DNA of 64,000 bases from Phycisphaerales bacterium (GTDB lineage: Bacteria > Planctomycetota > Phycisphaerae > Phycisphaerales > SM1A02), in the NCBI GenBank assembly GCA_046350455.1, contig JAXMAM010000001.1:57130-121129 (forward strand), written 5' to 3'. The notes under the pieces were generated by a model. The model did no database searches. It was not told the origin of the DNA and saw only the letters and a program-made list of their open reading frames with translations. Positions 22,415-56,749 of the stretch are shown here, in pieces; the first letter of the stretch is position 1, and every line of letters begins with the position of its first letter. Position numbers and translations under genes: made by a program.

Positions 22415-23101
22415 ATGGCCGATGCAGTTGCCGACGAACTGCAGTTCCACGTGGAGTCCTGCGTAGCGGAGTTGATGCGCGATGGTCTATCAGAGGACGC
22501 CGCACGCGCTGAAGCGCTGCGGAGGTTTGGAGACATGCAGGCCCACGCAGAGGCCTGCCGGCGCCAGGCGCCAGGAGCACACATGAGCCGGATGATGAAG
22601 ATCGCCGTGGCCGGGGTTGCTGGAAGCATGGCCGTTGCGCTGGTGACCACCGGACTGCTTGCCTTCAAGCAGCACGGTGAGCTTGCTGAGGCGCGCGCGT
22701 CTCAGAAGCGCGCTGAGGAGCTGGTGGGCAAGATGAACCTGGAGCTCACGCAGCTGCGGGCCGCAGCAGGCGCGTCGGTGCACGACACCGGCGTGGTCTA
22801 TGTGGATGGTGTCATTGCACGCCCCGGCGTGTACAGCCTTCCTGCAGTTGGTGATCTGCGCGCGTCGCGGTTGGTGGCTGCGGCTGGCGGCATCAAGGCA
22901 GATGTTCACATCGAAGTGGAACCAGACAGCGAGAGCGATCAGCGGATCAAAGAATGGCAGGCCAAGGGTGCCACAGTGGTGCCTGGCTACCACCAGCGGC
23001 CGGCGCTCCGCGTGCGGCTCAGCCACGCGGATGGCCTGCAGGGGATTGACCCCGTGCTCCGCGCCAATGACATGGTGCGTGTCATCGCGGCCGGCGAGTA
23101 G
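22415..23101 (+). CDS. PadR-associated membrane protein with C-terminal SLBB-like domain
   Basis: N-terminus ELQFHVESCVAELMRDGLSEDAARAEALRRFGD is typical of genes downstream of padR. One TM helix. DGVIARPGVYSLPAVGDLRASRLVAAAGG. Confidence 0.45.
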   Translation: MADAVADELQFHVESCVAELMRDGLSEDAARAEALRRFGDMQAHAEACRRQAPGAHMSRMMKIAVAGVAGSMAVALVTTGLLAFKQHGELAEARASQKRAEELVGKMNLELTQLRAAAGASVHDTGVVYVDGVIARPGVYSLPAVGDLRASRLVAAAGGIKADVHIEVEPDSESDQRIKEWQAKGATVVPGYHQRPALRVRLSHADGLQGIDPVLRANDMVRVIAAGE

Positions 23102-42368: not shown

Positions 42369-42427
42369 GCGGGCGCAGGGGCGGGTCCCGCGCAGGCGGC
42401 CCACGCAGCGCCGCGGGGCCCGCAGGC

Positions 42428-43429
42428 CTACGGCGGCGGGATGTACGTGTACGTGCCGCCCGTGTCCTCTGCGATGCGCTTCAGCACTGGCTCTGCAGCC
42501 TGCGAGTAGAACGCGATGGTGTGGATGACCACCTTGTGGTCCCCGTTGTACTGGTCCAGCACGTTGTCCACGGGCGCGCCGTTGAACTCGCCGTCGGTCA
42601 TCAGGTAGATGGTGTCGGGCCGCGGCTCGCGCAGCGCGATGCGCAGGGCTTCGGTGGGGTCGGTGCCGCCGCCGCGCTCCTGGGCGCGCAGCCACTCGAT
42701 GGCAGCCTTCTTGTTGGCATCCGTGGCGGCCACCAGCGAGCCGGGCGGCATGGCCAGGGCTGTGTCGTCAAAGAACACAATCAGGAACGCGCCGTTGTTG
42801 GGCAGTTTCTCAATGGACCGGCGCAGCTCCAGCTTGGTGTGCACCAGCTTCTGGCCAGCCATGCTGCCAGAGAAGTCAATCACATAGACCACGCGGCGCG
42901 AATCCGTCCGCACGCCCATGAACTCTGTGCCGCCGCGGGTGCCAGAGGCGCCCTCCACGCCGTGGCTGTCGCCAGAGCCCACCACTGGCGGCGCAGCAGG
43001 TGGCGCCACGGGCTGCGGTTCCTCGTCTGGCAGCGTGAAGCCAAACTTGGGCGGCGTCTGCTCAGCAGGCGGTGCGTTGCTGGGCGGACCGCTGGCCACA
43101 GCGGGGGAGCCAGCCCCAGGGCCCACGCCACCCGTTGCGTCCATCACATCGTTGCCGCCGCTCCCTGCACCGGTGCCCTTTTCACCAGACCCGGGACCAT
43201 TGCCGTGCGTGCCAGTGCCAGTGCCTGTGCCGCCGCCAGCGCCACCAGTGCCATGCCCATAGCCCAGGCCACCTCCGCGCAGCTGGCCATCTGGCCGGGC
43301 TGCATCTGATCCCGCCAGCCAGGCAGCCACGCACAGCACCATGGCTGCCACAAAGGTGGCTGCGATGCCCACCACCGCGGTCAGCCGCTCGTGTGGTTCG
43401 CAGGTGGTGCCGGTATTGACGTGCTGCAT
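42428..43429 (-). CDS. membrane-anchored von Willebrand factor type A (vWA) domain protein
   Basis: N-terminal TM, Gly-rich linker, then VVYVIDFSGSMAGQKL (the MIDAS motif DxSxS) ...TDGEFN. Divergent from the operon, about 65 nt apart. Confidence 0.6.
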   Translation of the reverse strand: MQHVNTGTTCEPHERLTAVVGIAATFVAAMVLCVAAWLAGSDAARPDGQLRGGGLGYGHGTGGAGGGTGTGTGTHGNGPGSGEKGTGAGSGGNDVMDATGGVGPGAGSPAVASGPPSNAPPAEQTPPKFGFTLPDEEPQPVAPPAAPPVVGSGDSHGVEGASGTRGGTEFMGVRTDSRRVVYVIDFSGSMAGQKLVHTKLELRRSIEKLPNNGAFLIVFFDDTALAMPPGSLVAATDANKKAAIEWLRAQERGGGTDPTEALRIALREPRPDTIYLMTDGEFNGAPVDNVLDQYNGDHKVVIHTIAFYSQAAEPVLKRIAEDTGGTYTYIPPP

Positions 43430-43494: not shown

Positions 43495-44981
43495 TTGACT
43501 AGCGTATACGGAAGGGAACACGCCCTCTCCCACAACATTCACGAGGGAATCTTGACCCGCACGCTCAAGTCTTCCTGCACCTGCCCCCATTGCTGGCACC
43601 GTTTCCGGCCCGACGAGGTCATGTGGATCGCCGCCCACCCCGAACTGGTGGGCGACAACCTGCTGTCCGCAGAAGACCCGGTGCGCTTCCTGCCCAGCCG
43701 GTTTACGCCCGATGGGCACGCGCTGGACCCAGGTGGCCAGCCCACCCGCCGCCTGGCCTGCCCGCATTGCCATCTGGAGGTGCCGCAGCTGGTGCTGGAG
43801 CGCCCCATGGTGTTCATGTCCATCGCGGGCAGCCCCTCCAGCGGCAAGAGCTACTTCCTGGCCAGCGCCATGTGGCAGATGCGCCAGGATCTGGCCCGCT
43901 TCTTCAGCGTGGCCTTCACCGACACCGACCCCGCCATGAACCGGATGATCGCCCACAACGAGGCGCGCCTGTTCCTGAACGAGGACGCCAACGCGCTGGT
44001 GGCCATCGAGAAGACCGAGATGGAAGGCGCGCAGTACAACTCGGTGCAGTTCGACCCGGGCGCTGCCACGCTCCTGGCGCATCCGTTCATCTTCACCGTG
44101 CGGCCTGGGCGCGACCATGTGAACGGACACGGCGCTGGGCGGCTGACCACGCTGCTGACCCTGTACGACAACGCAGGCGAGCACTTCATGCCGGGCGCAG
44201 ACACCACGCGCGCGCCAGGCACCAAGCACCTGGCCAAGTCGCAGGTGCTGATGTTTGTGTTCGACCCCACGCAGGACGTGCGCTTCCGCCAGCGGCTGCA
44301 GGCTGTCTCCAGCGACCCGCAGCTGGCGGCAGGGCGCCGCACCGTGCGCCAGGACCAGCTGCTGGTGGAGATGGCGCGCCGCATCCGCATGCATGCAGGC
44401 CTGTCGCCCACCGCGCGCATCAAGCGTCCGCTCTTCCTCCTCCTCAGCAAGAGCGACATCTGGAAGGACCTGCTGCGCGATTCCAGCAGCCAGCCGCTGG
44501 ACGTGATCACCCCGCCCTACACGCGCGAGCGCGTGGGCCTGGGCAAGATGGACATCCGCCGCGTGGATGCAGCCAGCGACGCAGTGCGCGCGCTCCTCAC
44601 GCAGCTGGCGCCAGAGATCGTCACCGCCGCAGAGGACGCCTTTGAACGCGTCATCTACGTGCCTGTGAGCGCCACCGGCACTTCGCCCGTGCTCGATCCG
44701 GCCAGCGGCCTCCTGAAGGTGGCGGTGTCCAAGATCGCGCCAGCGTGGTGCGCATGCCGTTCATCTACTCGCTGGCGCGCTGGTCCAAGCACATGATGGC
44801 CACCAACAAGAGCGAGCCGCCGGGGTCGTTCTATGAGGAGGATGAAGGCACGCCAGAGACGCCGCCACCCGGCCACCCAGATGATGCTGGCGATGCTGGC
44901 GAGGCAGATGCGTCCGACGCAGCAGCGCGCGACGCTGGCCCGCCGCTCACACCCGTGGAGGGCCACGTGGATGGCGCATGA
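43495..44981 (+). CDS. zinc-ribbon + P-loop GTPase (G1 GSPSSGKS, G3 DNAG, G4 SKSD, G5 SAT); probable frameshift near 44735-44750 (upstream frame stops at 44796, downstream frame continues to 44981)
   Basis: CTCPHCWHRF...CPHCH, then MVFMSIAGSPSSGKSYF, TLYDNAGE, LLLSKSDIW, YVPVSATG. A TTG start at 43495 or 43553 (the latter preceded by GAGGGA). A second frame with high GC3 runs 44716-44981 and overlaps the next gene's start. Confidence 0.5.
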
Positions 44982-45471
44982 GCTGGTGTACACCTCGGCT
45001 GCGCGCGGTCTGCGCGATGGCACCAGCGGCTTCTGCACGGTGGCCATGACGCGTGGGCTTCCGCTCACCTTGGTGCCGCGGCTGGAGACGCTGGGCGGGT
45101 ATCGCCCTGGACCAGCTGGCGATGGGCCAGTCGCGCTCTCCCGCGGCCGGGAGAAAGCGGCAGCGTGCTGGGTCTGCTCTTCTACGCGCTGGGTGGGACC
45201 CGCAGCGCCGGACCACACGCAGCGCAGCAACAAGATCGCCACTACCTGGTGCTGGACGAAGAACCGCATCGATGGCCCAGCATGGCTGCTGGTGCTGCTG
45301 CGCTGCTGCGGCCTGGCGCGGACCGCCGGCGTGGTGCTGGCCGAGCAGCCTGCGGCGCTCCCCACTGCGCCTGCCACTGGGCCAGCGCCCCGTCAGGCGG
45401 GGGCGCTACGCGCGTGCAGGCGACGCTGGCTGCAGGGGAAGCTGGCTTCCAGCGCTCGGTGCTGGCGATGA
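44968..45471 (+). CDS. small protein of unknown function (operon gene B)
   Basis: ATG within ATGGCGCATGA overlapping the upstream stop. GC3 favours this frame over most of its length. An ambiguous 45100-45190 stretch leaves the frame uncertain. Confidence 0.3.
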   Translation, partial: WMAHELVYTSAARGLRDGTSGFCTVAMTRGLPLTLVPRLETLGGYRPGPAGDGPVALSRGREKAAACWVCSSTRWVGPAAPDHTQRSNKIATTWCWTKNRIDGPAWLLVLLRCCGLARTAGVVLAEQPAALPTAPATGPAPRQAGALRACRRRWLQGKLASSARCWR

Positions 45472-46346
45472 GCAAGCCAGCGCATGTGATCTACCCCGCT
45501 GGCATGGATCCCATGCCGCTCATCCTGGAGGCGCAGCAGCTGCTTCCTGCCTGGGCGCGCTGGCGGGCCACCTTCAGCACCTACTTCCTGCAGCCCGTGG
45601 CGGGTGCGCCGTGCCTGTGGCGCTTCTGCCTGGATGGCACGCCTGCCGCAGATGCCGCGCGCGCCTCCAAGGGCGTGGTGATTGACCTGACCAGGCAGCT
45701 GGGTGAAGCACCCGATGGCCGCTATGTGCGCGCGGCGCGCTCGGGCTCCCTGGAGGGCGAGGCTCCCGCAAGCGCGCAGGCTGGAGCCGCCGCGCCCCGG
45801 GGCTCGCGGAGCGGCGGTGCTGCGTTTGACGAGGAAGAGCCACAGGGCGGCTTCGCAGAAGGGCCGAACGCTGGCAGGTTGATGGACGAGCACGGCGAGC
45901 CGATCGGATTGGCGCCGCTGGAGTCAGCCGCCTCCAGCCGCTCCAGGCGCTTGAAGTCCAGCACCGATCAGGGCAGCGGGCCCACCTTCCGGCTGAGCCC
46001 CGCTGTCATTGGCGCGATTGCTGGCGCTGGCACGCTGGCGCTGGTGGTGGTGGTGGCCGTGCTGTTCTCGCGCGGAAGCGGGCAGACGCCGCAGCAGCCG
46101 GATGAGGCGGAACTGTCGGGCCAGGCGCAGCCATCAGGCCAGGCAGCGCGTCAGGGCAAGGCGCCGCCAAAGGGCCTGCCGTGGCCTCCCAAGGAGCCGG
46201 GGCAACGGCAGCAGGTGGTGGTGCAGGCCCCGAGCCAGCGCCTGTGGAGCCGCAACCTGTTGGCACGCAACCTGTCCAAACACAGTCTGTCCAGCCACAG
46301 CCAGTCGAGCCACAGCCGGACAAGCCATCATCAAGCGAGCCATTGA
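45468..46346 (+). CDS. membrane protein with one TM helix and Pro/Gln-rich linker (operon gene C; probably continuous with 46181-47500 through a frame change)
   Basis: The ATGA overlap with the gene B stop is weaker evidence because that boundary is itself low-confidence. TM FRLSPAVIGAIAGAGTLALVVVVAVLF. GC3 is high until about 46200. The C-terminal SHSQSSHSRTSHHQASH tail looks out of frame. Confidence 0.4.
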   Translation: MSKPAHVIYPAGMDPMPLILEAQQLLPAWARWRATFSTYFLQPVAGAPCLWRFCLDGTPAADAARASKGVVIDLTRQLGEAPDGRYVRAARSGSLEGEAPASAQAGAAAPRGSRSGGAAFDEEEPQGGFAEGPNAGRLMDEHGEPIGLAPLESAASSRSRRLKSSTDQGSGPTFRLSPAVIGAIAGAGTLALVVVVAVLFSRGSGQTPQQPDEAELSGQAQPSGQAARQGKAPPKGLPWPPKEPGQRQQVVVQAPSQRLWSRNLLARNLSKHSLSSHSQSSHSRTSHHQASH

Positions 46347-47500
46347 CGGGCAACGCGCAGCCAGCGGCACCCACGCAGCCAGCGCAGCAGCCCACGCAGC
46401 CCACAGAGCCCACGCAGCCAGCGCAGCAGCCCACGCAGCCCACCGCGCCTGCGCAGCCAGCGCTGGTGCCAGCTCCAGCGCCGGACCGCCCTTCGCGGCA
46501 GGTGGTCATGCGCCTGGTGGAGAACGCGGACACGCTGTTTGCCAGCGTGCAGCTCAACCAGCTCTGGGGCATCACCGGTGCGCGGTTCGCGCCTCCGCCG
46601 CTCCTGCAGCAGCAGGGCGTGGTGGCAGAGGACAACCAGCTGCGCATGCCAGGCGTGCATCCTTCGGCGGTGGTGGAGCTGAAGGATGGCGGCATCCGCA
46701 TCAGCTTCCCTGTGCGCGGCAACGGGCTTGAGGCGCTGGCGTCGGTGATCCGCATGCGCACCAGCGCCAAGCCAACCGACTACGCCCGCGCAGTGCTGCG
46801 CCGTGTGCCGCTGCTCCTGACCGACGCCAACGGCGTGGTGGTGGCCACTGCGCGGGTGGAGGCAGAGCCGCGCGTGGAGCTCCGCCGCAACGCGCAGCAG
46901 GCGCAGCTGCCGCTGACCGTGCGCGAACTGGCCATCCGCGCCGCCGTGGTCCACGACACCCCGCAGGGGCGCGAGGAGCTGGACTCGCGCGAGATCATGC
47001 CCGGACAGTCGCTGCCGGTGAAGGGCCGCCACGGCGACCTGCTGGTGACCTTTGAGAACGCCTACTCCCTGGCCGTGACGCCAGAGTCTGCGTCCGCTGC
47101 CGCGGCAGAGCAGGCCCGGCTTGCAGACGAGATGCAGAAGATCAGCGCCCGCCTTGGCGCGGTGGCGGTCCTGCAGCGCAAGCTGAAGGGCGCGAGCAGC
47201 GTGACCGACACGGACGTGGCGCGCGCCATCACCGAAGTGCAGAACGCGCTGAACGACGACGAGAAGGAGCACACCAAGGATGCCAAGGGCAAGGCGCAGC
47301 CGCTGACGGACACAGAGACGCTCCAGCGCGTGCTGCCGCGCTTTGAGGCGCGCTGCAAGCTGGAGGCGGAGACCACGCGCACAGCGCTCCTGGAGGCGCA
47401 GAAGCGCTCCCGCACCACCCCGGACGACAAGCTGCGCGTGGAGTTCTACGGCACGGATGGCATGCTCCTGGGCGTGGTCCTCCCGGAAGGAAAGTCCTGA
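46181..47500 (+). CDS. Pro/Gln-rich linker (PVEPQPV.. / QPTQPTEPTQPAQQ repeats) plus about 330-aa C-terminal domain (operon gene D or 3' part of gene C)
   Basis: High GC3 from about 46210 to 47500. Stop overlaps the next start (TGATG at 47500). Confidence 0.45.
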   Translation: MASQGAGATAAGGGAGPEPAPVEPQPVGTQPVQTQSVQPQPVEPQPDKPSSSEPLTGNAQPAAPTQPAQQPTQPTEPTQPAQQPTQPTAPAQPALVPAPAPDRPSRQVVMRLVENADTLFASVQLNQLWGITGARFAPPPLLQQQGVVAEDNQLRMPGVHPSAVVELKDGGIRISFPVRGNGLEALASVIRMRTSAKPTDYARAVLRRVPLLLTDANGVVVATARVEAEPRVELRRNAQQAQLPLTVRELAIRAAVVHDTPQGREELDSREIMPGQSLPVKGRHGDLLVTFENAYSLAVTPESASAAAAEQARLADEMQKISARLGAVAVLQRKLKGASSVTDTDVARAITEVQNALNDDEKEHTKDAKGKAQPLTDTETLQRVLPRFEARCKLEAETTRTALLEAQKRSRTTPDDKLRVEFYGTDGMLLGVVLPEGKS

Positions 47501-48606
47501 TGCTGCACCTGACCACCTTGCTCTGCGTGCTGCTGCTCACGCCGCCACCGGTGCCGGGCGGCGCGCCCTTCAAGCCGCCGCTTGCACCGCGCAATCCGCC
47601 CGGGACGCGGCCCAACACGCCGCCCATCGGCCCGGGTGGCAAGCAGCCGCCCGCCACTCCCACCACGCCTTCGCAGCCCAAGGCGCCAGGTCCCACCAAG
47701 CCAGCGGACACCCAGTCTTCGCAGCCCGCCGAGGAGGCCAAGCCGCCAGCGGCCACCGTGGCGGACACGGATCTGGTGCTGCTGGACACCAAGCTGCTGG
47801 TGCCCAAGTTGGACGCCATGCACGACGTGCAGCCGCTCAGCGGCGTGATTGGGCGATGCCCATCCTCGGTGGTGTCGGCGGTGCCAGCGCTGCCAGATCA
47901 GAGCGGGGTGCTGACGTGGCAGACAGATCCTGACCAGGTGAGGCTGATGGCTCGCAACGCAGCGGGGCAGAGCAGCGTGCTGGGTGTGCTGCGCTGGAAG
48001 GGCGCCTCGCTGGAGTGGTCGTGGTCTCGCTGCAGCCAGTCTTCGTTCACGCAGGCGGTGGCCGACGCAGAGCGTCTCCTGCGCTGGATGACCATCCGGA
48101 TCACGCTGGAGGGCGGCAAGCAGAAGCTGGGCACTGCAGCAGCGCAGCGCGTGGTGCGCACGCTGCCTGGCTTTGGTGAGTCGGCCATCATGCAGCTTCC
48201 GCCCGTGCGTGGCCTGGTAGTGGTGCCAGAGGCATCCGCCGTGTGGACGGTTACGCCGCCAGGTGGTGGCCAGACCATCCACCTGGAGAGCCCTGCGGGC
48301 GGTCTGGACATCCGGGTGGACACGCAGCAGCGCCGGCTGGTGGCGGACTTCTCCGCAGCTGGCGGCAGCGTGACCGTGGCTGAGCTCAAGCAGACCATCG
48401 CAGACCGCACCAAGGAGCTGCAGCGCGCCACGCCAGACGAGAAGCTGCTGATCGAGGCGGAGATCCAGAAGCTGAAGAACGAATTGGCCGCGGCAGAGGC
48501 CGAGGCCCACAAGCGCGCCCCGTGGTCGCCGCTGCCTGTGCTGCGCATGCAGGACGAGGTGGGCCGCGTGGTGGCCGTGCTGGAACTGCAAGTGAAGGGA
48601 TCATGA
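47500..48606 (+). CDS. N-terminally anchored protein with TonB-like Pro-rich spacer and about 250-aa C-terminal domain (operon gene E)
   Basis: MLHLTTLLCVLLLT anchor, PPPVPGGAPFKPPLAPRNPPGTRPNTPPIGPGGKQPPATPTTPSQPKAPGPTKP, and a coiled coil at the C-terminus. Confidence 0.5.
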   Translation: MLHLTTLLCVLLLTPPPVPGGAPFKPPLAPRNPPGTRPNTPPIGPGGKQPPATPTTPSQPKAPGPTKPADTQSSQPAEEAKPPAATVADTDLVLLDTKLLVPKLDAMHDVQPLSGVIGRCPSSVVSAVPALPDQSGVLTWQTDPDQVRLMARNAAGQSSVLGVLRWKGASLEWSWSRCSQSSFTQAVADAERLLRWMTIRITLEGGKQKLGTAAAQRVVRTLPGFGESAIMQLPPVRGLVVVPEASAVWTVTPPGGGQTIHLESPAGGLDIRVDTQQRRLVADFSAAGGSVTVAELKQTIADRTKELQRATPDEKLLIEAEIQKLKNELAAAEAEAHKRAPWSPLPVLRMQDEVGRVVAVLELQVKGS

Positions 48607-51512
48607 ACAGCGTCACCCGTGAAATGTTCGACGCCGTGCGCGATGCACTGGCGGGCCGCGAGATGGACGAAGCCCAGCGCCGCGACCTGGCGCAGCGCGT
48701 GAGCGAGGCCGGCATGGCGTTCCGCCGCCGCGTGGATCGCGCCGTGCGCTATACGCGCGATGGTCTGCGCTTGGAGGCCGCTGCGGAGGCGGAGGCAGAT
48801 CCCTCCATCTTTGAGGTGGCGCAGGCGCTGGACAGCCCCGACCTGCACAAGTGGCGCGCAGCGTGCCAGCGTGCGCACCTGCCAGCGCCGGACGCCCCGG
48901 ATCCAGCCGCGCTCGGCGAGATCGAGGAGGCCATCGCCCAGCTGCGTCCGCTGCGCAAGTACATGGCCCGCATGCGCACGCTGGTGCTGAGCGACGCGCC
49001 GCCGTGGGACCGCCTTCTGGTGCTGCGCAGCCTGCGTGCGCACGACCCGCACAACCACGCATGGAAGGAGGACCAGGCTGCGCTGGAGCCAAAGGCCGCA
49101 GAGTGGCTGGCGGAGCGCTGCGAGAAGGCAGTGCAGGCAGGGCACCTGAACACCGCTGCGCGCATGCTGGAGCATCTGGAGGATGGCGGCTGGCGCTCGC
49201 TGGACGTCAGCCGCCCTGTTGGCCAGCTGCGCACTGCGCTGCACGCCGCCGTGGTGGCGGAGTGCGTGCGCAAGGCGGCCCCCGTGGTGGAGCGGCTGGA
49301 GGCGGAGTGGGCCGCGGAGGACGCGCCTGCCGTGCGCGCCACGCTGGCTGAATGGCATGAGCTGAACGCCCGCGCGGTGGAGCACGACGGCCAGATGGAG
49401 GACGCGCTCTTGGCCCGCGTGGCCCGCGTGGAGGAGTGGCTGGACGAACGCACGCAGCTGGCCGAGGCGCAGCGCGACCACCGTGACCGCGCGGCCGCGC
49501 TGCAGCGCATCCTGGACGCGCAGGTGGCGCCGCTGCAGGAGATCCGCGCCGCCCTGAAGGCCAGCGAGGACACCAGCGAGGGCTGCCCAGACGACCTGCG
49601 CCGCCGCACGCTGGACCGCATCGACCAGCTGGAGCGCAAGCAGCGCGCACGGCGCGCCGCCGTGGCGGGTGCTGGTCTGCTGGTGCTGGCTGCAGCGGTG
49701 ACCGGCGTGTGGCTGGGGGTGAAGTACGTCACCCACAACGCAAGCGTGTCCAACATCGCGGCGTCCATCCAGAATGCAGTGGACGCTGGGCGGCTTGAGG
49801 ATGCGGAGCGCATCCTGAAGGAGGCGCAGGCGGACCCGGCTGTGGCCGGCGACGAGCGCATCGGCATCGCTGGCGCAGCGCTGGCCCGGGCGCAGCTGGC
49901 GCGCACGCAGGCGGTGACCAACTTTGCGGCCCTCATGGCGGAGGCCGGAGATCCGGAAAGCGCTGCCGCGCACCCAGAAGCTGTGGAGGAGGCCAAGGAG
50001 CTGGCGCGCACGCCAGAGCAGCAGGCAGCGGTGGAGGAGTGGGTGCGCAAGCGCCGCCGCGCAGAAGCGCAGCGTGCCGCCGAGCGCACGCGCGACCTTT
50101 CGCAGCGCATTGCAGAGCTGGCCAAGGAGGTCAGCGCGGTGGATCCAAGCACCGCCGAGGCGCCCAGCACGCTCACTGCGCTGGAGACCAAGCTGCAGGC
50201 CCTGGAGCGGAGCGCGGCAGACCAGCCGGAACTTCGCCAGCAGCTTGACAACGTGCGTGCGCTGGTAGTGGCGCAGCGGTCCTCTGCGCAGAGCGCTGCG
50301 GCTGGTTCAGAGCGGCAGAGCGCACTTCAGGCGCTGGCCGCGCAGTCCACTGAACCGCTGGCGCTGGCTGGAGCCATCAAGGCCTTTGCTGACCGCTATC
50401 CCGGCACGCCAGAGGCCGTGGCGCTGGCGCAGGCCGCTGTGGCTGCGCCGCAGTGGAACGCCGTGGCGCAGTGGAACGAAGTCGTGGGCACGCGGCCGTG
50501 GGGGCGCGCGGCGCAGCTCTCCAACGAAGAGCGCGACACCATGCGCGACGCGCTCAAGGCGTACGTGGACGCGTATCCGGCGTCGCCCTTTGCGGCTCTG
50601 GCCAGGCAGATGATGGCCATGCTCTCCAACCCGGAGAGCTGGCGCGGCTGGGCCAGCGGCAAGCTGGACACGCTGCCTGCCTTCACCTACTACGTGGTGG
50701 ATCTCATTGATGGCTCGCGGCTGTACACCACCCAGGACCCAGCGCGCATCAACCTGCAGTCGCGGGCCAATCTGCCGCAGTACAAGGTGATTCCAGTGCT
50801 GCAGAAGGATGATCCGGCGGGCGGCACGGTGCTGATGGACGTGGACACCGCGCGCATCAAGAAGGCTGGGCCCTCCCCGCAGATGCTGCTGGCTGGCCAG
50901 CTGCGCCAGGTGGTGGCGGATCCAGAGCCTCAGGGCGACTGGGCCAACGGCATGACCGCTGCGCTGGCCGTGCTGCAGCGCGTGCGCGACGCACAGGACG
51001 TGGACGGCGCCTTTGCCGCACAGCTGGCGCGCGGCGTGCTGGAGTCGCTGGACGCCGAGGCGCCTGCCGAACTCCGCCCCGCGCTGCAGAGCGCGGCCAA
51101 GCGCATCGCGCGCGAGCGCCCAGAGGACGTGGCGTGGGTGGCGGGCTCGCAGCCCGCACGGGCACGCAGCGCCGAGCTGCGCGCGCTGCTCAAGCAGGTG
51201 CTCACGGTGGAGGCGTGGCGCAAGACGCTTGCGGAGGCGCCCGCAGCCGTGGCTGGCGCCATGATGCGGCCAGTGCCGGTGGGCATGCTGATGGGGCTGG
51301 AGAGCCGTGTGCTCACCACGCCGCCGGGCACCAGCGCGCCAGCGGGCGCCTCGCTGCTGGCGCTGAAGGTGGGCGTGGGCACTGTGCCATCGGAGCTGGT
51401 GCGCATCGGCCAGGTGGATGGCGCTGGCGCGGTCACGCTTGATCAGGCGGCAAGCGCCTTCCCCATGGGCACCATGGTCTTTGCCCTCCCTTCCAAGGGG
51501 GCAGGCCAGTGA
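48603..51512 (+). CDS. 996-aa bitopic alpha-helical/coiled-coil protein (about 390-aa cytoplasmic, one TM, about 580-aa periplasmic; TolA-like architecture) (operon gene F)
   Basis: ATGA overlap with gene E stop at 48603-48606. TM RRAAVAGAGLLVLAAAVTGVWLGV around residue 390. Ala/Glu/Arg/Gln-rich heptad-like segments. Strong GC3. Confidence 0.55.
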   Translation: MNSVTREMFDAVRDALAGREMDEAQRRDLAQRVSEAGMAFRRRVDRAVRYTRDGLRLEAAAEAEADPSIFEVAQALDSPDLHKWRAACQRAHLPAPDAPDPAALGEIEEAIAQLRPLRKYMARMRTLVLSDAPPWDRLLVLRSLRAHDPHNHAWKEDQAALEPKAAEWLAERCEKAVQAGHLNTAARMLEHLEDGGWRSLDVSRPVGQLRTALHAAVVAECVRKAAPVVERLEAEWAAEDAPAVRATLAEWHELNARAVEHDGQMEDALLARVARVEEWLDERTQLAEAQRDHRDRAAALQRILDAQVAPLQEIRAALKASEDTSEGCPDDLRRRTLDRIDQLERKQRARRAAVAGAGLLVLAAAVTGVWLGVKYVTHNASVSNIAASIQNAVDAGRLEDAERILKEAQADPAVAGDERIGIAGAALARAQLARTQAVTNFAALMAEAGDPESAAAHPEAVEEAKELARTPEQQAAVEEWVRKRRRAEAQRAAERTRDLSQRIAELAKEVSAVDPSTAEAPSTLTALETKLQALERSAADQPELRQQLDNVRALVVAQRSSAQSAAAGSERQSALQALAAQSTEPLALAGAIKAFADRYPGTPEAVALAQAAVAAPQWNAVAQWNEVVGTRPWGRAAQLSNEERDTMRDALKAYVDAYPASPFAALARQMMAMLSNPESWRGWASGKLDTLPAFTYYVVDLIDGSRLYTTQDPARINLQSRANLPQYKVIPVLQKDDPAGGTVLMDVDTARIKKAGPSPQMLLAGQLRQVVADPEPQGDWANGMTAALAVLQRVRDAQDVDGAFAAQLARGVLESLDAEAPAELRPALQSAAKRIARERPEDVAWVAGSQPARARSAELRALLKQVLTVEAWRKTLAEAPAAVAGAMMRPVPVGMLMGLESRVLTTPPGTSAPAGASLLALKVGVGTVPSELVRIGQVDGAGAVTLDQAASAFPMGTMVFALPSKGAGQ

Positions 51513-52543
51513 GCGAGGGCTGGCATGTCCGGCAGGCAGGCCGCCAGAGCGGGCCGTTTGACCTGGAGCGGCTGCGCACCATGGCGCAGCGTGGCGCGCT
51601 TACGCGGTTCCACCAGCTGAGTCGCGATGGCGAGGAGTGGATCTCTGCTGCCAAGGTGCGGGCCGTCTTCAACGAGGATGGGTCGGTGGCAACCGGCCCC
51701 ACAGACAGCGGGGCATCCTTCAGCAGCACCAGCGCCTTTGAGGCCTTTGCCAACATGCGCATGCCAGAGCTGCCGGCGCTGCCCACAGCGCACTTCCGCG
51801 GCGGGGCGTTTGGCGCCACCGTGCTGTGGGCGCAGATCGCAGCGCTGGCGCTGGGCACGCTGGCCATGGTGGCTCCCACCAGCCGCGATGCTGATGGCGC
51901 GCTGCAGTGGTGGTTCCAGGAGGGGGCGCTGAGCATCTCGGTGCATGCCATGACGCTGCTGGCGTTCCTCACGTGGTGGGTGGTGGCGTTCCTGCCGCCC
52001 AACGCGTCGGTGGGCGCGTCGCTGGCTGCGGTGTCTGCGGTGCTGGCTGCAGGCAGCATGCTGCCGGCTGTGTCCTGGGCGCCGTGGGCGCTGCCAGCTG
52101 CCGCGGTCCTGCCGCTGGCGGCCATGCTGGTTGCCTTCGGCACAGAGGGCTCCAAGGCCGTGGGCGCGGTGGCCATCACGCTGTGCATCGAGGCCGGCCT
52201 GGCCCTGGTGGTGGCGGGCCTCCTGCTGGCATTCAACTTCAGCGGCTGGGGCCTGGCGGCCGTGCTGGTGCAGCTGGCTGGAACCGTGGCGCTGATCATC
52301 GGCGCTGTCCGCACCAAGAGCGGGTTGTCGCACGCGTTTGCGCTCACCGTGGGCGGCGCTGCGGCCATGGCCGTCACCATGTTCCTGGCGAGCGCTGCAG
52401 CCCTGGCTGGTGAACAGCCTGCGCATGGAGCGGCTGGAGCAACGTCCGCTGCGCTGTGCGTGTGCCTCTCCGTGCTAGCGTGGAGCGCGTCGCACCAGGC
52501 GCTGGGCGGTCCGCTGATCATCAAGTCAACCACAGAGTCATGA
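51509..52543 (+). CDS. DUF4339 (GYF-like) N-terminal domain fused to about 6 TM helices (operon gene G)
   Basis: GTGA overlap with gene F stop. WHVRQAGRQSGPFDLERLRTMAQRGALTRFHQLSRDGEEWISAAKV matches the DUF4339 pattern (W...G...GP.....L......G.....T.VW......W). Hydrophobic helices follow. Confidence 0.55.
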   Translation: MSEGWHVRQAGRQSGPFDLERLRTMAQRGALTRFHQLSRDGEEWISAAKVRAVFNEDGSVATGPTDSGASFSSTSAFEAFANMRMPELPALPTAHFRGGAFGATVLWAQIAALALGTLAMVAPTSRDADGALQWWFQEGALSISVHAMTLLAFLTWWVVAFLPPNASVGASLAAVSAVLAAGSMLPAVSWAPWALPAAAVLPLAAMLVAFGTEGSKAVGAVAITLCIEAGLALVVAGLLLAFNFSGWGLAAVLVQLAGTVALIIGAVRTKSGLSHAFALTVGGAAAMAVTMFLASAAALAGEQPAHGAAGATSAALCVCLSVLAWSASHQALGGPLIIKSTTES

Positions 52544-53439
52544 GCGCACAGACACCCACCACCGCAGATCCTTCGTCGCACAAGCAGCGCGCAGAGGCGC
52601 CCAGCAGCCAGCACCGCCTGGACGCCCGCAAGGGCGACCTGGAGTGCATGGTGGGCCTGCCATCTGGGCGGTACACCTCAGCCAGCGCCACGCTGTGGCT
52701 GGCTGGGGCGGCGGCGCTCACGGCGGCGTGCGGCGGGCTGCTGCTCCTGCTGGCGCCGCAGGGCTACGTGCTGCACATGCTCAACCGGTGCTGGACCAAC
52801 TGGGCGGTGGTGCTGCTCACGTGGTGGAGCCTGTGCATCCTGATCAACAAGTGGATCAAGACCAGCATCCAGATGAAGGCAGTGCGCATTGACACGCTGG
52901 TGCCGCGCCGCGGCGACTTTGTGCTGAGCCCCGGCACTGCAGGCGACGTGCTGCGCCACATGCGCGCCATCGCGGAGCGGCCCAAGGACTTCCTGCTGTT
53001 CCGGCGCATTGACATGGCGCTTTCCAACCTGGGCAACATCGGTGAGGTGCGCGACGTGGGCGCTGTGCTGGAGGGCCAGGCAGACTCGGACGCCAGCCAG
53101 GTGGACAGCAGCTACACCGTGCTGCGCGCGGTCATCTGGACCATCCCCATCCTGGGGTTCATCGGCACGGTGATCGGTCTGTCGGACGCCATCGGCAGCT
53201 TTACGGAAGTGCTCACGCAGCCAGGTGCGGACGTGGCGGCCATCAAGACCAAGCTGGGACCGGTGGTCACAGGCCTGGCCACGGCGTTTGAGACCACGCT
53301 GGTGGCGCTGCAGGCAGCGGTCATCGTGCAGCTGATCTCCACGTGGGTGTTCAAGCGCGAGGAGGACATGCTGGACGCCATGAGCGAATACACCACCGAG
53401 CACATCCTGAGCCGGCTGAAGCTGACCGACTGGAAGTGA
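52540..53439 (+). CDS. MotA/TolQ/ExbB-family proton channel subunit (operon gene H)
   Basis: ATGA overlap with gene G stop. Four TM helices. C-terminal signature ILGFIGTVIGL...LGPVVTGLATAFETTLVALQAAVIVQL. Confidence 0.65.
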   Translation: MSAQTPTTADPSSHKQRAEAPSSQHRLDARKGDLECMVGLPSGRYTSASATLWLAGAAALTAACGGLLLLLAPQGYVLHMLNRCWTNWAVVLLTWWSLCILINKWIKTSIQMKAVRIDTLVPRRGDFVLSPGTAGDVLRHMRAIAERPKDFLLFRRIDMALSNLGNIGEVRDVGAVLEGQADSDASQVDSSYTVLRAVIWTIPILGFIGTVIGLSDAIGSFTEVLTQPGADVAAIKTKLGPVVTGLATAFETTLVALQAAVIVQLISTWVFKREEDMLDAMSEYTTEHILSRLKLTDWK

Positions 53440-53457
53440 CGCCGGAGCGCCTGCACC

Positions 53458-54288
53458 ATGGGACGCCGCAAGAAGAAGCAGCAGGAGTCGCTCACGCTGT
53501 TCTCCTTTCAGGACATCATGGCATGCCTGACGGGCGTGCTCATCCTGATCTCGCTGCTGCTTGCACTGGACGGCCTGAGCGACCGCATTGACGACGCTGG
53601 CGCGCCTGGATCCGCCGCAGAGGCCGATGCCGCGCAGCGCGTTGAGCAGCTGGCAGCGGAGATCAAGACGCTGGAGGAGCAGGTGGACGTGCGCATGCGC
53701 GGCCTGCCTGTGACCGAGGACGAGGTGAAGGTGCTGGAGGCGCGCGCAGCCAGCATGCAGCGCGAACTGGATGAGGCCCAGCAGCGCGACCGCACGCTGG
53801 CGGCAGAGGTGGCGCGCCTGGAAGAGGAGGAGAAGGCGCTGATGGTGCGGCGCCAGGCTGCGGAGCGCACCCTGGTGGAGCAGGAGCTCCAGAAGCGGCG
53901 GCAGCGCGTGCAGTACCGCCCCGGCGGGCAGCAGGAGCGGACGCCGCTGTTCGTGGAGGTCTCGGCCAGTGGACTGCGCGTGGGCAAGCTGGACGCAGAG
54001 CGCACGCCAGTGATGCTGGCTGATCTGCCAGGCGCTGCGCCGCTGCCACCCAGGCCTGAAGAGGGGCTGGCCAAGGCGCTGAATCCGCTCGGGCCGGATG
54101 CGTACTACGTGCTGTTCGTGGTGCACCCGGATGGCATCAAGCGGTTCGAGGCGCTGCGCGCAGCGGTCTTCCGCAATGGCTACGAAGTGGGCTGGCAGCT
54201 GTGGGACGCAGCTGCGGGCGCGTTCCTGCAGCCAGCACCTGTGGTCACGCCCGCTGCGGCACCAGCAGGCGCGGGGGGTGGCTCATGA
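53458..54288 (+). CDS. TolR/ExbD/MotB-like subunit 1 with conserved TM Asp, long coiled coil and ExbD-like periplasmic domain (operon gene I)
   Basis: MGRRKKKQQESLTLFSFQDIMACLTGVLILISLLL (compare MotB YADFMTLLMAFFLLL). Coiled coil. ...YYVLFVVHPDGIKRFEALRAAVFRNGYEVGWQL. Confidence 0.55.
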   Translation: MGRRKKKQQESLTLFSFQDIMACLTGVLILISLLLALDGLSDRIDDAGAPGSAAEADAAQRVEQLAAEIKTLEEQVDVRMRGLPVTEDEVKVLEARAASMQRELDEAQQRDRTLAAEVARLEEEEKALMVRRQAAERTLVEQELQKRRQRVQYRPGGQQERTPLFVEVSASGLRVGKLDAERTPVMLADLPGAAPLPPRPEEGLAKALNPLGPDAYYVLFVVHPDGIKRFEALRAAVFRNGYEVGWQLWDAAAGAFLQPAPVVTPAAAPAGAGGGS

Positions 54289-55091
54289 ACCGCGGGCCGT
54301 TCAGGCGCCGGCGGCGGCGGCGAGCTGGGTCGCTGGCGGGCGACCCGTTCATCCTCTTCCTGGATGCCATCACCGATGCGCTGGGCGTGGTGATGTTCCT
54401 GCTGTTGATGGTGGTGCTGGCAGCACGCGCGTCCAACGTGGTGTCCAGGCTGGGCGGTGGCAAGCAGGCAGCGGCGGCAGCATTGCAGGAGGAGCGCGAT
54501 GCGCTGGCTGTGGAGCTGGCAGCGCTGCCGCCTGCGGGGGACCCGGAGGTGGCGGATCGCTGGCGCGCTGCGCAGGCCACGCTGGCCAGCCTGCGGCCGC
54601 AGCTGGACCGCGCTGCGCCTGCCATCCGCATGCGCGTGAATGAGTCGCAGTCCAAGCGAGTGGCGCTGACGTCGCTGGACACCGAGGTGCAGACGCTGGA
54701 GGCGCGCGTGAAGGCGCAGGCTGCCACGGCCAGCGTGACGCCTTCGCTGGTGCGCGTCAGCCGGTTCAAGAGCGACGCGCGCAAGCCCGTGCTCCTGGGG
54801 CTCAACCAGGGTGCGCTGTCTGCGCTCAAGGTGTCGCACGACACCAAGAGCATTGCGCCACCTGCCAGCGGCACGGCGGTGCCCACAGCCGCGGCAGCGC
54901 GCGCTGCGCTGGAGACGCTGCTGTCTGGCCAGCCGCGCGACACGTATCGAGTGGAGCTGGTGGTGTGGGCCAATTCCTTCGCGCAGGCCAAGCTGGTGGA
55001 GGAGGCGCTGGCCGAGATGGGGTACGACGTGAACCCGCTGCCAGTGGTGGACGGAGGCGTGCTGGAGCCCGGTGCTGGCGGCGTGCAGTAG
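54285..55091 (+). CDS. TolR/ExbD-like subunit 2 with conserved TM Asp (operon gene J)
   Basis: ATGA overlap with gene I stop. DPFILFLDAITDALGVVMFLLLMVV (compare ExbD/TolR TPLIDVMLVLLIIF). C-terminus YRVELVVWANSFAQAKLVEEALAEMGYDVNPL. Confidence 0.55.
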   Translation: MNRGPFRRRRRRRAGSLAGDPFILFLDAITDALGVVMFLLLMVVLAARASNVVSRLGGGKQAAAAALQEERDALAVELAALPPAGDPEVADRWRAAQATLASLRPQLDRAAPAIRMRVNESQSKRVALTSLDTEVQTLEARVKAQAATASVTPSLVRVSRFKSDARKPVLLGLNQGALSALKVSHDTKSIAPPASGTAVPTAAAARAALETLLSGQPRDTYRVELVVWANSFAQAKLVEEALAEMGYDVNPLPVVDGGVLEPGAGGVQ

Positions 55092-55139
55092 GAGGGGCGG
55101 GGTGCGGCGGGAGCGCGGCGCGGCGTACCATGGTGGGAC

Positions 55140-56132
55140 ATGCGCCGCGTTGCAGCCAGAGTGTTGGTCCTTGCTGCGGCGGCGTGTCTGCTGAGCGCGA
55201 GCCTGGCGGGGCTGGCTGGGTGCGGCAGGCCCATCACCGTGCAGGCATTGGCAGCGGGGTCGGATGCGCCGGTGGATGATGTGCGCATCTATCGCCACAT
55301 GTTCACGTGGTTCACGCTGTTCCCAGGCAAGAAGAGCGTGGAGACTGGGCCCGATGGCACAGCGGTGGTCACAGTGGGGCCGTCGAACACCAATCTCACC
55401 ATGCTTCGCCAGGGGTACGAGCCAGTGCTTTTGGGCGTGTTCGAGCAGGGCGCGCCCAGCATCCAGCCAGATGACGGTGGATACGACTATGTGCTGCTGT
55501 ACTCCACCATCAAGGACAAGCAGGTAGTGCCTGTGGAGTTCCGGCCTGTGCGGCGCGTGCCGCTGCAGCTGCATGTGGTGGATGCGGACAGCGGGCAGCC
55601 GCTGGCAGGTGCCACAGTGTTTGGGACCACGTATCTGTATCTGCCGCAGCCAGGCGTGGAGGCCGACTGGGGCTATCCGCCCGTGCAGGAAGTGACCACC
55701 AGCGCGCAGGGCCAGGCCGTGGTGGACCAGGTGAGCGGATTCCGCAATCGCGTGACAGTGCGCAAGCCGGGCTACTGCGATGCGGAGCTGGACATTGATG
55801 GCCGCAAGCTGGGCAGCGAGGCCGCGCGCGAGGTGGCGCTGCGGCCCTTCCGTGTGAAGCACGTGGATTTTCAGGTGTTTGACGCGTCCACGCGCATGCC
55901 TGTGGCCGGCGCAGAGGTGGTGCTGGGCGAGCAGCGCGACGGTCTCCCCATGAGCCCAGATGGCTGGAAGGCGGTCACTGGACCGACGGGCCGCACGGGC
56001 GTGCAGGCAGTGCCCAACATGGAGCCGCCGCTGATGACCGTGCGTGCCAAGGGCTACCCGGAATGGCGCGGCGCCCCGCTGTGGCGCGCGCTGCAGGACG
56101 GCGGCACCAAGCGCATCGAAATCCGCAAGTAG
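55140..56132 (+). CDS. lipoprotein with two or three carboxypeptidase-regulatory-like (transthyretin-fold) domains, in the Pal-like position (operon gene K)
   Basis: Lipobox LAGLAGC. TGPDGTAVVTV / DADSGQPLAGATVFG / VFDASTRMPVAGAEVVLG...TGPTGRTGV. The stop TAG is immediately followed by the MITE TIR. Confidence 0.55.
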   Translation: MRRVAARVLVLAAAACLLSASLAGLAGCGRPITVQALAAGSDAPVDDVRIYRHMFTWFTLFPGKKSVETGPDGTAVVTVGPSNTNLTMLRQGYEPVLLGVFEQGAPSIQPDDGGYDYVLLYSTIKDKQVVPVEFRPVRRVPLQLHVVDADSGQPLAGATVFGTTYLYLPQPGVEADWGYPPVQEVTTSAQGQAVVDQVSGFRNRVTVRKPGYCDAELDIDGRKLGSEAAREVALRPFRVKHVDFQVFDASTRMPVAGAEVVLGEQRDGLPMSPDGWKAVTGPTGRTGVQAVPNMEPPLMTVRAKGYPEWRGAPLWRALQDGGTKRIEIRK

Positions 56133-56749
56133 GAAATTGGTGCCTGGCACGGGTGTCCCTACTTTCGGAACCTCGTGCCAGGCACTCCTGTCCCGGGTTT
56201 CTGAGGCGCGCCGTAAGACCGTGCGGTACCGCGCGCTGAACCGCGCGCTGAACCGCGCGACGGACCGCAGGCACCGCGTGCCGCGGCCTCCGCGCGGTCC
56301 GGGGGGCGCGGCCGCGGACGGCTCGGCTCCACCAGGTTCCGCCTTCGCCTCGGCTTCGCGTGCGCTCGGCAGGTGGAACGGCCCGCGAACCGGGGAACCC
56401 ACACATCCTGCCTCGCTCCGCTCAACGCCGCTACGCCGCGCCCCCCGGTCCCGCGCTGCGGCCGCTGCGAGAGCGAGGTGATCAGCCGCTGCGAGAGCGA
56501 GGTGATCAGCCGCTGGGCGCGGAAGCCGGTCGAGAGTGGTGCTTGGCAGCACGTTCCCAGGCGACACGTGCCAGGTCACCATGCTCACTGGCACCTGCGT
56601 CCCAGGCACCTGTGTCCCAGGCACCCTTGACCCTGGCATCACTCTCCCTGGCACCACCCTCTGCGGCACGTATCTCCGAAAGGAGGGACACCCGTGCCAG
56701 GCACGAGTTTCGTCAGAAACCCGGGACACCAGTGCCTGGCACCAATTTC
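56133..56749 (+). mobile_element. MITE-like element, copy 2 (about 617 bp, inverted relative to copy 1, with internal tandem duplications)
   Basis: The same TIRs as copy 1. The internal core is the reverse complement of the copy 1 core. It contains the tandem duplications cgcgctgaaccgcg x2 and gctgcgagagcgaggtgatcagcc x2. The 3' end of asd lies inside the right end. Confidence 0.6.

Follow-up and report, generated by a model that had tools for sequence, protein, structure and literature searches.

An operon of PVC bacteria that joins a GTPase–GAP1 pair to a MotA/ExbB-type channel and two paired membrane proteins

The stretch of DNA analysed here (the window; 64,000 nucleotides of contig JAXMAM010000001.1 from the Phycisphaerales assembly GCA_046350455.1, G+C content of approximately 68%) carries an operon in which genes for a zinc-ribbon GTPase and its partner GAP1 are joined to genes for a MotA/ExbB-type channel subunit (H) and two paired, aspartate-bearing membrane proteins (I and J). 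A frame plot of G+C at third codon positions (GC3) shows a single unbroken coding run on the + strand at approximately 43.5–56.1 kb, continuous and with the strong signal that a preliminary description, made from the letters of this DNA, had reported. Comparison with other genomes establishes that the operon is genuine and that Planctomycetes, Verrucomicrobia and Lentisphaerae all conserve it. Its conserved core consists of the GTPase, GAP1, a large bitopic protein (F), a GYF-domain membrane protein (G), H, I and J; a protein with a vWA domain is a frequent accessory, and two further products, E and K, are clade-specific. Judging from conservation and gene order, the operon most likely has a conserved function in the cell envelope rather than a variable one in defence. 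Whether its products form a trans-envelope machine that is driven by ions, gated by the GTPase and devoted to housekeeping is, in our judgement, about an even call.

Conservation across the PVC superphylum

To follow the operon through the Planctomycetes–Verrucomicrobia–Chlamydiae (PVC) superphylum, an alignment of H relatives was scanned against one genome per species, which yielded at least 569 loci. The best 80 of these were taken (loci are denoted by the letter L and a number). They come from Phycisphaerae, Planctomycetia, Verrucomicrobiota and Lentisphaerota, and the few that bear the titles of other taxa are probably mis-binned. A hidden Markov model (HMM) was built for each window product and iterated on the six-frame open reading frames (ORFs) of the loci, and the gene counts given next refer to the 46 species loci that have at least 9 kb of sequence upstream and at least 2.5 kb downstream of H.

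All 46 loci contain I, and J, F and GAP1 are each present in 45. The GTPase is matched in 42, and in three of the remaining four loci extra genes appear to push it past the locus edge. Matches to G (local HMM) were found in 31 loci and matches to the vWA-like protein (window-product HMM) in 17, whereas K and E are each found in 5. The genes H, I and J thus occur with F and GAP1 in 45 of the 46 loci and with the GTPase in 42, which excludes chance adjacency; the proposal that these genes form one conserved unit is borne out. I and J adjoin H, and lie directly after it in nearly all loci. The linkage survives rearrangement: in L041, L044 and L078 the order is H–I–J before GTPase–GAP1–F, and in L050 and L052 the blocks are transcribed divergently.

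In two loci, L058 and L059 (Thermoguttaceae, rumen planctomycete), a tandem second GTPase–GAP1–F(–G) block follows the first, and L059 also has a second I–J pair. These copies point to paralogous expansion in some lineages.

Genes and products of the operon

Gene models were obtained by comparing the translations of candidate ORFs with orthologous loci from public assemblies (L001, L004, L088 and L097). The + strand carries nine genes, rather than the ten first proposed, and a divergent gene for the vWA protein on the − strand had been missed (Table 1). Several boundaries have moved as well. The GTPase had been started at 43495 and is now started at TTG 43552, behind GAGGGA, which resembles a ribosome-binding site; F starts at ATG 48603 and so has 969 amino acids, not 996; and the corrected starts of H and J are at 52540 and 54285. 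This F is 100% identical to the NCBI protein MFO0782141.1 (U0636_00470), and I is MFO0782144.1. The tight junctions that had been described hold: the starts of E, F, G, H and J overlap the previous stop by 1–4 nt (ATGA or GTGA), and H–I and J–K are separated by gaps of 18 nt and 48 nt, respectively. In addition, the corrected GTPase stop overlaps the GAP1 start codon. Searches in and around the operon for Rfam families, tRNAs, sigma-70-like promoters and above-background terminators found none. A + strand ORF at 42365–43309 (314 amino acids), which a naive ORF list would take for the upstream neighbour, has no Pfam match and was rejected as a high-GC shadow of the minus-strand vWA gene.

Table 1. 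Genes of the operon and the divergent vWA gene (window coordinates).
Product	Position	Strand	Support
vWA protein, membrane-tethered	42428..43429	−	Pfam VWA_3 53.8 bits
Zinc-ribbon TRAFAC GTPase, DO-GTPase2 type	43552..44981	+	Pfam DO-GTPase2 28.1 bits (cutoff 27)
GAP1 (B, C and D of the preliminary description)	44971..47500	+	Pfam GAP1-N2 44.8 and GAP1-M 46.6 bits, on fragments
E, 368 amino acids, exported/anchored, Pro-rich linker and beta/helical domain	47500..48606	+	No Pfam family
F, 969-amino-acid bitopic helical-repeat protein	48603..51512	+	AlphaFold2 model; no Pfam match
G, N-terminal GYF domain and approximately 7 hydrophobic segments	51509..52543	+	Pfam GYF_2 30.8 bits (cutoff 25.8)
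H, divergent MotA/ExbB/TolQ-family channel subunit, 299 amino acids	52540..53439	+	Pfam MotA_ExbB (PF01618) 37.8 bits (cutoff 22.9)
I, bitopic partner subunit	53458..54288	+	N-terminal transmembrane segment with Asp, coiled coil, C-terminal alpha/beta domain
J, paralogue of I	54285..55091	+	Transmembrane segment with Asp, coiled coil, C-terminal domain
K, lipoprotein	55140..56132	+	Pfam CarboxypepD_reg 41.6 bits; lipobox LAGC, Cys28

The zinc-ribbon GTPase had been recognized correctly: the product matches DO-GTPase2 and contains the ribbon CPHC...CPHC and the P-loop GSPSSGKS. It is 75% identical to intact orthologues of 439–453 amino acids. Across 42 aligned PVC GTPase sequences, the motifs CPxC...ACPxC, G..SGKS, YDNAGE (a Walker B motif with Glu) and K.D.W are invariant, and the protein looks like an active NTPase. 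More distant orthologues score 20–26 bits against DO-GTPase2, just under the cutoff of 27. The C terminus bears a Pro-rich stretch, PETPPPGHP. In Victivallis vadensis DSM 14823 the GTPase (L075:1485–3293) has an N-terminal GYF_2 domain (32.7 bits) fused with the zinc ribbon, and verrucomicrobial and Lentisphaerae GTPases generally have N-terminal extensions of approximately 60–300 residues (approximately 130–300 in most).

In GAP1, cytoplasmic GAP1-N2 and GAP1-M domains are followed by one transmembrane (TM) segment, a linker of Pro/Gln-rich repeats and a C-terminal domain in the periplasm. Its orthologues are single genes of 815–839 amino acids, and the separate small protein (B) and anchored protein (C/D) of the preliminary description are fragments of this one gene; B arose because frameshifts split GAP1. 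The intact GAP1 of L004 scores 62.7 bits for GAP1-N2 and 56.9 bits for GAP1-M, and with the curated Pfam models GAP1-N2 reaches 75–96 bits in Botrimarina, Victivallis vadensis and one verrucomicrobial chromosome. The periplasmic part is just 24% identical to that of L004. In the GAP1 of a Verrucomicrobiae chromosome (OY969416.1; L057:5017–7062), the linker and C-terminal domain of the window protein are replaced by a domain with a weak Ig I-set match and, at the C terminus, by a region that weakly resembles ConA/GH43_C2. The extracytoplasmic part of GAP1 is thus swapped between lineages. The linker of the window protein is encoded by tandem repeats of 15, 30 and 39 nt at 46241–46463 (PQPV and PTQPAQQ units), and its length differs between close relatives by in-frame indels of 9 and 15 nt. 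We considered E as a paralogue of the periplasmic/C-terminal region of GAP1, but BLASTP gave no significant match.

In the window, both of these genes are disrupted. A 1-nt deletion at approximately 44747–44755 puts the last ~75 GTPase codons in another frame (corrected stop, TGA 44979–44981), and the frame of GAP1 is broken by approximately 34 indel events in 45142–45468 and by a 1-nt deletion at 46232. Frames were traced by tblastn and frameshift-aware alignment, with which the GAP1 orthologue could be followed through all three frames of the window. The window has 96.9% nucleotide identity to L097. Its indels relative to L088 and L097 are confined to patches at 44755, 45142–45468 and 46232–46438, and the remaining ~10 kb of the operon, as far as approximately 55.1 kb, aligns without gap columns; the substitution density is ordinary throughout. 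GTPase and GAP1 are intact in both assemblies that are ~97% identical to the window, L088 and L097. L088 (GCA_044230435.1) has indel patches of its own at L088:11000–15000, equivalent to window 56.2–59.9 kb, which fragment apaG, trpC and an Rce1-like gene that are all intact in the window. On this evidence both assemblies contain local errors, each at positions of its own. Because the genes are intact in these close relatives, the indels are patchy and the patches of L088 lie elsewhere, the disrupted frames are most likely unpolished assembly errors. Real pseudogenization is unlikely for the same reasons, and the shifted frames still read the ancestral protein. The pattern resembles patchy polishing of a metagenome-assembled genome from long reads; as deposited, GTPase and GAP1 would look like pseudogenes.

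H, which had been described as MotA/TolQ/ExbB-like, is indeed a channel subunit of the MotA/ExbB/TolQ family that keeps the P-x-x-G-x-x-G-T and TT pore motifs. It has four predicted TM segments and ends approximately 36 residues past the last of them. Residues P203, G206, G209, T210, T252 and T253 are invariant in 32 sequences, and we take the motif IPILGFIGTV to be the P-x-x-G-x-x-G-T-V motif of ExbB and TolQ. Sequence identity is 69–73% to the L001 and L004 orthologues and 69–74% to most of the Planctomycetota proteins among the matches listed.

I has an invariant FxFQD motif (D19; 42 sequences) in its N-terminal TM segment, followed by a coiled coil of approximately 95 residues and a C-terminal alpha/beta domain. 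J has an invariant LD (D27; 41 sequences) in its TM segment, followed by a coiled coil and a C-terminal domain. Both aspartates lie near the cytoplasmic end of the single TM segment; the helix modelled by AlphaFold2 (AF2) spans residues 17–44. The two families align over their full length (hhalign probability 99.65%, E 5e-25), and I and J are paralogues that occur as an obligate pair. In the model, I has a long (~14-nm) periplasmic coiled coil and a C-terminal head that can be superposed on TolR and is compatible with, though not firmly assigned to, the TolR fold.

F is the second bitopic scaffold besides GAP1. Residues 1–352 are cytoplasmic and helical, a TM segment follows at approximately 353–376, and the otherwise helical periplasmic part contains small beta domains at 697–757 and 891–962 (AF2, predicted local distance difference test score 84.8). 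We found no Pfam match and, at E ≤ 0.001, no fold match in the PDB; the comparison with TolA made earlier is not supported, as neither sequence nor fold shows similarity to TolA. Conservation across 53 sequences peaks in cytoplasmic residues 51–150. JGI annotates one orthologue (P0370) as a TPR repeat protein. In G, a GYF adaptor in the cytoplasm is attached to a polytopic membrane domain. The GYF assignment made for G stands, with the number of hydrophobic segments now nearer seven than the six first counted. Verrucomicrobial loci that lack a G match have a shorter protein in that place, with an N terminus that by eye is GYF-like and with TM segments.

Two products are restricted in distribution. 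E is 31% identical to its L004 orthologue and is a lineage-specific accessory. K, which contains one or more carboxypeptidase-regulatory-like beta-sandwich domains and is 51–58% identical to its orthologues, is specific to the Phycisphaerales clade. It is a lipoprotein with such a domain, as had been described, but its occurrence in 5 of 46 loci means that it is not a core analogue of Pal. Searches of Pfam and NCBIfam gave no family for E, F, I or J; the Pfam matches listed in Table 1 all exceed the family cutoffs.

The vWA protein (333 amino acids) has a TM segment at residues 18–36 (hydropathy scan), a Gly-rich linker and a C-terminal vWA domain. Its gene is divergent from that of the GTPase, and is matched in tblastn searches with the operon-flanking vWA genes of L001, L004 and L081. 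With a stricter HMM for the vWA domain alone, an adjacent vWA-domain ORF is present in approximately 18 species loci. In Phycisphaerae the gene lies upstream, in divergent orientation; in Planctomycetia and Lentisphaerae it is mostly found just 3′ of J, directly after it in Botrimarina (L081) and approximately 0.6 kb after it in Victivallis (L075). The TM segment is preceded by a conserved C-x-x-[HR]-E-R-x-[ST]-A; inspection of the window and its relatives by eye revealed no obvious S-H-L-S spacing.

Relation to known systems and possible roles

One half of the operon has been noted before and the other probably has, with opposite readings (a conflict system and a force transducer); in neither case were the two linked into one PVC-wide operon. 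Kaur, Burroughs, Iyer & Aravind (eLife 2020; PMC7159879) defined the DO-GTPases and GAP1-N1/N2, predicted that they form conflict systems and reported that, in planctomycetes, N2 systems are coupled to proteins in which a GYF domain is joined with a TM-rich region. MotA, ExbB and TolQ have no occurrences in the text and supplement of that study. In the literature searched, the terms GAP1-N2, DO-GTPase1 and DO-GTPase2 were not found elsewhere, and ‘double-GTPase’ appeared once, in an unrelated methods paper. The other half is probably the PVC cluster described in PMC12204202 (Mol Biol Evol 2025, section 8), which consists of a gene for a tetratricopeptide repeat (TPR) protein, a tolQ-like gene, a heterologous pair of tolR-like genes and an inner-membrane-tethered vWA force transducer. 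That study proposes force transduction driven by the proton-motive force, with an SHLS/His motor-binding motif in the vWA TM segment, and mentions no GTPase, GAP1 or GYF protein. Because the GTPase and GAP1 of the window are the DO-GTPase/GAP1-N2 pair of PMC7159879, to call the system undescribed, as had been done, was an overstatement: the GTPase–GAP1(–GYF) half is in that paper and the TPR–tolQ–tolR pair–vWA half is probably in PMC12204202.

The correspondence with the second cluster lies in a tolQ-like gene that is preceded by a helical-repeat gene, a pair of dissimilar tolR-like genes, a protein of TM–linker–vWA architecture and a PVC distribution. The description of that cluster fits F–(G)–H–I–J–vWA as found in Botrimarina, which we liken by description to the published Tichowtungia cluster. 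In contrast to that cluster, the vWA gene in the clade of the window is divergent and upstream, and the SHLS/His motif is not evident by eye. A mucin-utilization locus of Akkermansia was also considered as a possible instance of the present operon, but the literature looked at does not support this.

Given two published halves, the operon could comprise two uncoupled systems that travel together, a GTPase–GAP1–F signalling module and a G–H–I–J(–vWA) force-transduction module like that of PMC12204202. We consider this decidedly improbable. GTPase–GAP1–F and (G)–H–I–J do move as units in the five reordered loci named above, a Neorhodopirellula locus (L061) has G–H–I–J with the other block not within 9 kb, and the halves were found independently by separate studies. 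However, across phylum-level distances 45 of the 46 loci keep the blocks side by side, and in the clade of the window the coding regions overlap at the F–G–H boundary. GYF domains, moreover, occur in G and, in Victivallis, on the GTPase, and no representative of the H family turned up in another conserved context, although the search for such contexts was not systematic.

The evidence for a housekeeping role comes from rates of change and from position. When the window is compared with two other genera, the identities of the GTPase (75%) and H (69–73%) fall within the range of those of asd, zwf, apaG and trpC (61–81%), and F, G, I, J and K are 37–58% identical. The neighbours of the operon, asd–apaG–trpC...zwf, are kept throughout the closest clade, and in the window no mobile or defence-island genes flank it. 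Scans with Pfam, NCBIfam and PADLOC revealed no nuclease, protease, pore-forming or other effector domain in any product.

Several results weigh against reading the operon as a GTPase-gated, ion-driven housekeeping machine. Some of them favour a Zorya-like conflict system directed against phages or other invaders, in which H, I and J would sense envelope damage and signal through GAP1 and F to the DO-GTPase and on to an effector response. The literature on DO-GTPases and GAP1 predicts a conflict role, and Kaur et al. class DO-GTPase/GAP1-N2 loci, those with planctomycete GYF–TM proteins included, as conflict systems. Tandem second copies, as in L058 and L059, are more typical of accessory systems. 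The variable periplasmic part of GAP1, with its Ig and ConA-like regions in L057, would fit a sensor under diversifying pressure. The best matches of H in the PADLOC defence library are ZorA models (E 2e-5, at most 21 bits), the N terminus of I has weak ZorB1 matches (15 bits), and outside the operon family H is closest to ZorA-like proteins of 450–950 amino acids (35–38% identity to H, up to 73.6 bits against ZorA models). Even so, we think a conflict system rather unlikely. The operon encodes no recognizable effector domain, H lacks a ZorA-type tail and I and J lack a peptidoglycan-binding domain. Moreover, the GTPase and H change no faster than core metabolic enzymes do, gene content is near constant over four PVC lineages, and the operon has a fixed position among housekeeping genes and, in the window, no mobile or defence-island flanks.

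Other results that weigh on the same side concern the motor assignment. Against solved structures, the only match of the H profile is TolQ, and it is weak (E 0.25); because H matches solved stators just weakly, we place it on a deep branch of the superfamily. None of the 83 members of the I and J families (42 I and 41 J) matches Pfam ExbD, MotB_plug or OmpA. A profile search of the PDB with I/J returned coiled-coil noise only, and alignment of the I/J profile with a 10-sequence ExbD/TolR reference, itself built from annotated genes, was colinear but not significant (hhalign E value of 0.03, probability of 1.7%). Single-sequence hhalign comparisons with Escherichia coli ExbD and TolR gave nothing. 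Of the likeness to TolR, ExbD and MotB first attributed to I and J, what remains is that they are small, bitopic and paralogous proteins with a TM aspartate, without a sequence-profile match to ExbD, TolR or MotB. On positional, topological and structural grounds they would work like ExbD/TolR-type partners; sequence assigns them to no family. The 5:2 stoichiometry, the I/J heterodimer and all of the protein contacts proposed below are also inferred, the stoichiometry from family membership only.

Features shared with the systems of Kaur et al. are the zinc-ribbon TRAFAC GTPase with a Walker B Glu, GAP1 (N2, M and C-terminal TM) directly downstream, a planctomycete protein of GYF and TM-rich regions, vWA proteins as recurrent neighbours and a membrane-proximal location. 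By contrast, the constant partners here comprise a channel of MotA/ExbB type, the TolR-like paralogues I and J with their aspartates and the 969-amino-acid bitopic protein; there is a single GTPase gene; and conservation and synteny look like those of housekeeping rather than diversifying genes. A rapidly evolving FNIII-repeat protein, the third component of N2-type systems, was not found: the window products have no FN3 match, although the folds of the GAP1 C terminus and of E were not predicted. The weak Ig I-set match in the GAP1 of L057 is the sole signal of a related kind. Nor did Pfam, NCBIfam and PADLOC detect in them any SLATT, peptidase or FGS effector modules, or the tubulin, HSP70 and kinase themes.

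Like ZorAB of Zorya (Nature 2024; PMC11946911), the operon has an A subunit of the MotA/ExbB superfamily and an Asp-bearing B subunit outside flagella and Tol/Ton systems, and both H and its more distant relatives match ZorA models best in the defence library. An exhaustive search grouped the relatives of H at E ≤ 1e-30 into 187 clusters (50% identity). Of 149 family representatives, 82 exceed 400 amino acids, and those sampled match ZorA models; the ~290-amino-acid H type of the PVC operon appears to be a tail-less sister of these ZorA-like proteins. A fusion of G with H, for which we also looked, occurs in none of the 149. Unlike ZorA, H has no long cytoplasmic tail, and unlike ZorB, I and J have a coiled coil and a putatively TolR-like head in place of a peptidoglycan-binding domain. 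The two B subunits differ from one another, and the locus does not occur sporadically but is conserved, with synteny. Pfam and PADLOC matched no ZorC, ZorD, ZorE, ZorF or ZorG effector and no OmpA or peptidoglycan-binding domain in the products.

AglQ and AglS are a heteromeric pair of TolR-like subunits, which the pair of I and J recalls. This likeness is one of three that might make the operon an ordinary, diverged orthologue of Tol-Pal, TonB–ExbBD or Agl–Glt in a known arrangement; the others are that H belongs to the MotA/ExbB/TolQ superfamily, with TolQ as its nearest solved sequence, and that the C-terminal head of I superposes on TolR. This alternative is effectively refuted. Pfam and NCBIfam matched no TolA or TonB C-terminal domain, TolB, Pal (OmpA-like) domain or TonB-dependent transporter in the products, the NCBIfam TolQ model gives H 15 bits against a cutoff of 221, F has no sequence or fold match to TolA, and the GTPase is a DO-GTPase rather than a Ras-like protein of the MglA type. 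The preliminary description was therefore right that this is not a canonical Tol-Pal, TonB, MotAB, GldLM or Zorya system: OmpA/peptidoglycan-binding domains, a TonB C-terminal domain and a ZorA tail are all missing. What the operon has in common with Tol-Pal and TonB–ExbBD is a channel subunit of the superfamily that retains the Thr and Pro-Gly pore motifs, a TM-Asp partner whose periplasmic fold is putatively TolR-like, and bitopic proteins with Pro-rich periplasmic linkers. It differs in the four TM segments of H (compared with three), in the ~95-residue coiled coil of I and J, which ExbD and TolR lack, and in the GTPase, GAP1, F and GYF components, which have no counterpart there.

The resemblance to the Myxococcus gliding apparatus Agl–Glt (AglR/AglQ/AglS, MglA and the ZnR–GYF protein GltJ; PMC11135422) that had been pointed out is no more than an analogy. 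In both, a TolQ-like channel goes with a pair of unlike TolR-like subunits, there is a cytoplasmic GTPase switch, a membrane protein bears a GYF domain with a zinc ribbon nearby, and the architecture is trans-envelope. The GTPases belong to different families, however, as MglA is Ras-like, and the zinc ribbon here is on the GTPase and not on the GYF protein. No homologues of Glt outer-membrane or periplasmic proteins, of AglZ or of named gliding families were matched in Pfam and NCBIfam, in which Glt-specific profiles were not searched separately. The resemblance is one of functional analogy rather than orthology.

For a GTPase-gated, ion-driven machine, we propose the following arrangement. 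A ring of five H subunits would surround an I/J heterodimer to form a 5:2 stator-type motor. Ion flow through the aspartates of I and J would turn the pair or change its conformation, and the coiled coil with its TolR-like head would act as a shaft or reach element that carries work to periplasmic partners. Candidates for such partners are the tethered vWA protein, F and GAP1 with their periplasmic parts and, in the clade of the window, E and K. Two further steps are suggested by GltJ, the GYF domain of which binds a Pro-rich segment of AglZ and the linker of which binds MglA-GTP (PMC11135422). By analogy, the GTPase–GAP1 pair may gate the assembly or activity of the motor from the cytoplasm, or relay the periplasmic state inward, and the GYF domain may recruit a Pro-rich tail such as PETPPPGHP at the C terminus of the GTPase.

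A bolder version of this proposal would make the operon a trans-envelope force-transduction apparatus of the PVC superphylum's own, a GTPase-gated rotary 5:2 motor with heterodimeric B subunits as a periplasmic coiled-coil drive shaft, which takes over the work of Tol-Pal and TonB. We consider this distinctly unlikely. If it were true, the work could be outer-membrane tethering or constriction at division, or energized uptake or adhesion, and the ‘GAP1-N2 conflict systems’ would, at least in PVC bacteria, be cell-biological machines. To our knowledge, some PVC members have no recognizable TolA and TonB, and many planctomycetes have no FtsZ. The operon bears on how PVC bacteria energize outer-membrane processes. 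Recognition of the whole provides a concrete seven-gene core (GTPase, GAP1, F, GYF–TM, H, I and J, with or without vWA), and would add to the 5:2 motor family an architecture with heterodimeric B subunits and a long periplasmic coiled coil, in which the motor would be under GTPase control. Were the operon a defence system instead, it would be a Zorya-like one with an unusual GTPase relay and unusually stable vertical inheritance.

Surrounding sequence

Individual relatives have additional genes next to the operon. In Botrimarina colliarenosi Pla108 (L081:12725–15309), and only there, a Ser/Thr kinase gene (Pkinase 136.6 bits) lies 3′ of the vWA gene, which recalls the kinase theme that Kaur et al. 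give for actinobacterial GAP1-N2 systems. In L004, an AbiEii/DUF6088 toxin–antitoxin pair (L004:17105–18798) is present between the Rce1-like gene and zwf; this relative alone has it, and is otherwise syntenic.

Upstream, at positions 1–38000 of the window, a codon-usage gene caller gave many short, low-scoring ORFs between a few clear genes. The clear genes encode a sulfatase (24617–27082), a DUF6159 protein (27118–28023) and an SPFH/Band 7 protein (31038–33083), as well as, on the − strand, an arginase (23082–24074) and an AlkZ-like protein (10358–11521). Further frameshift patches may be present in this region.

Downstream, K and asd are separated by a 580-nt convergent intergenic region (window 56132–56713) that contains small perfect tandem repeats: a 12-mer repeated 2.7 times at 56228–56259, a 24-mer repeated 2.3 times at 56461–56515 and a 15-mer repeated 3.3 times at 56590–56638. 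The copy number of the repeats differs from that in L088, and the corresponding spacer in L004 is just 70 nt long.

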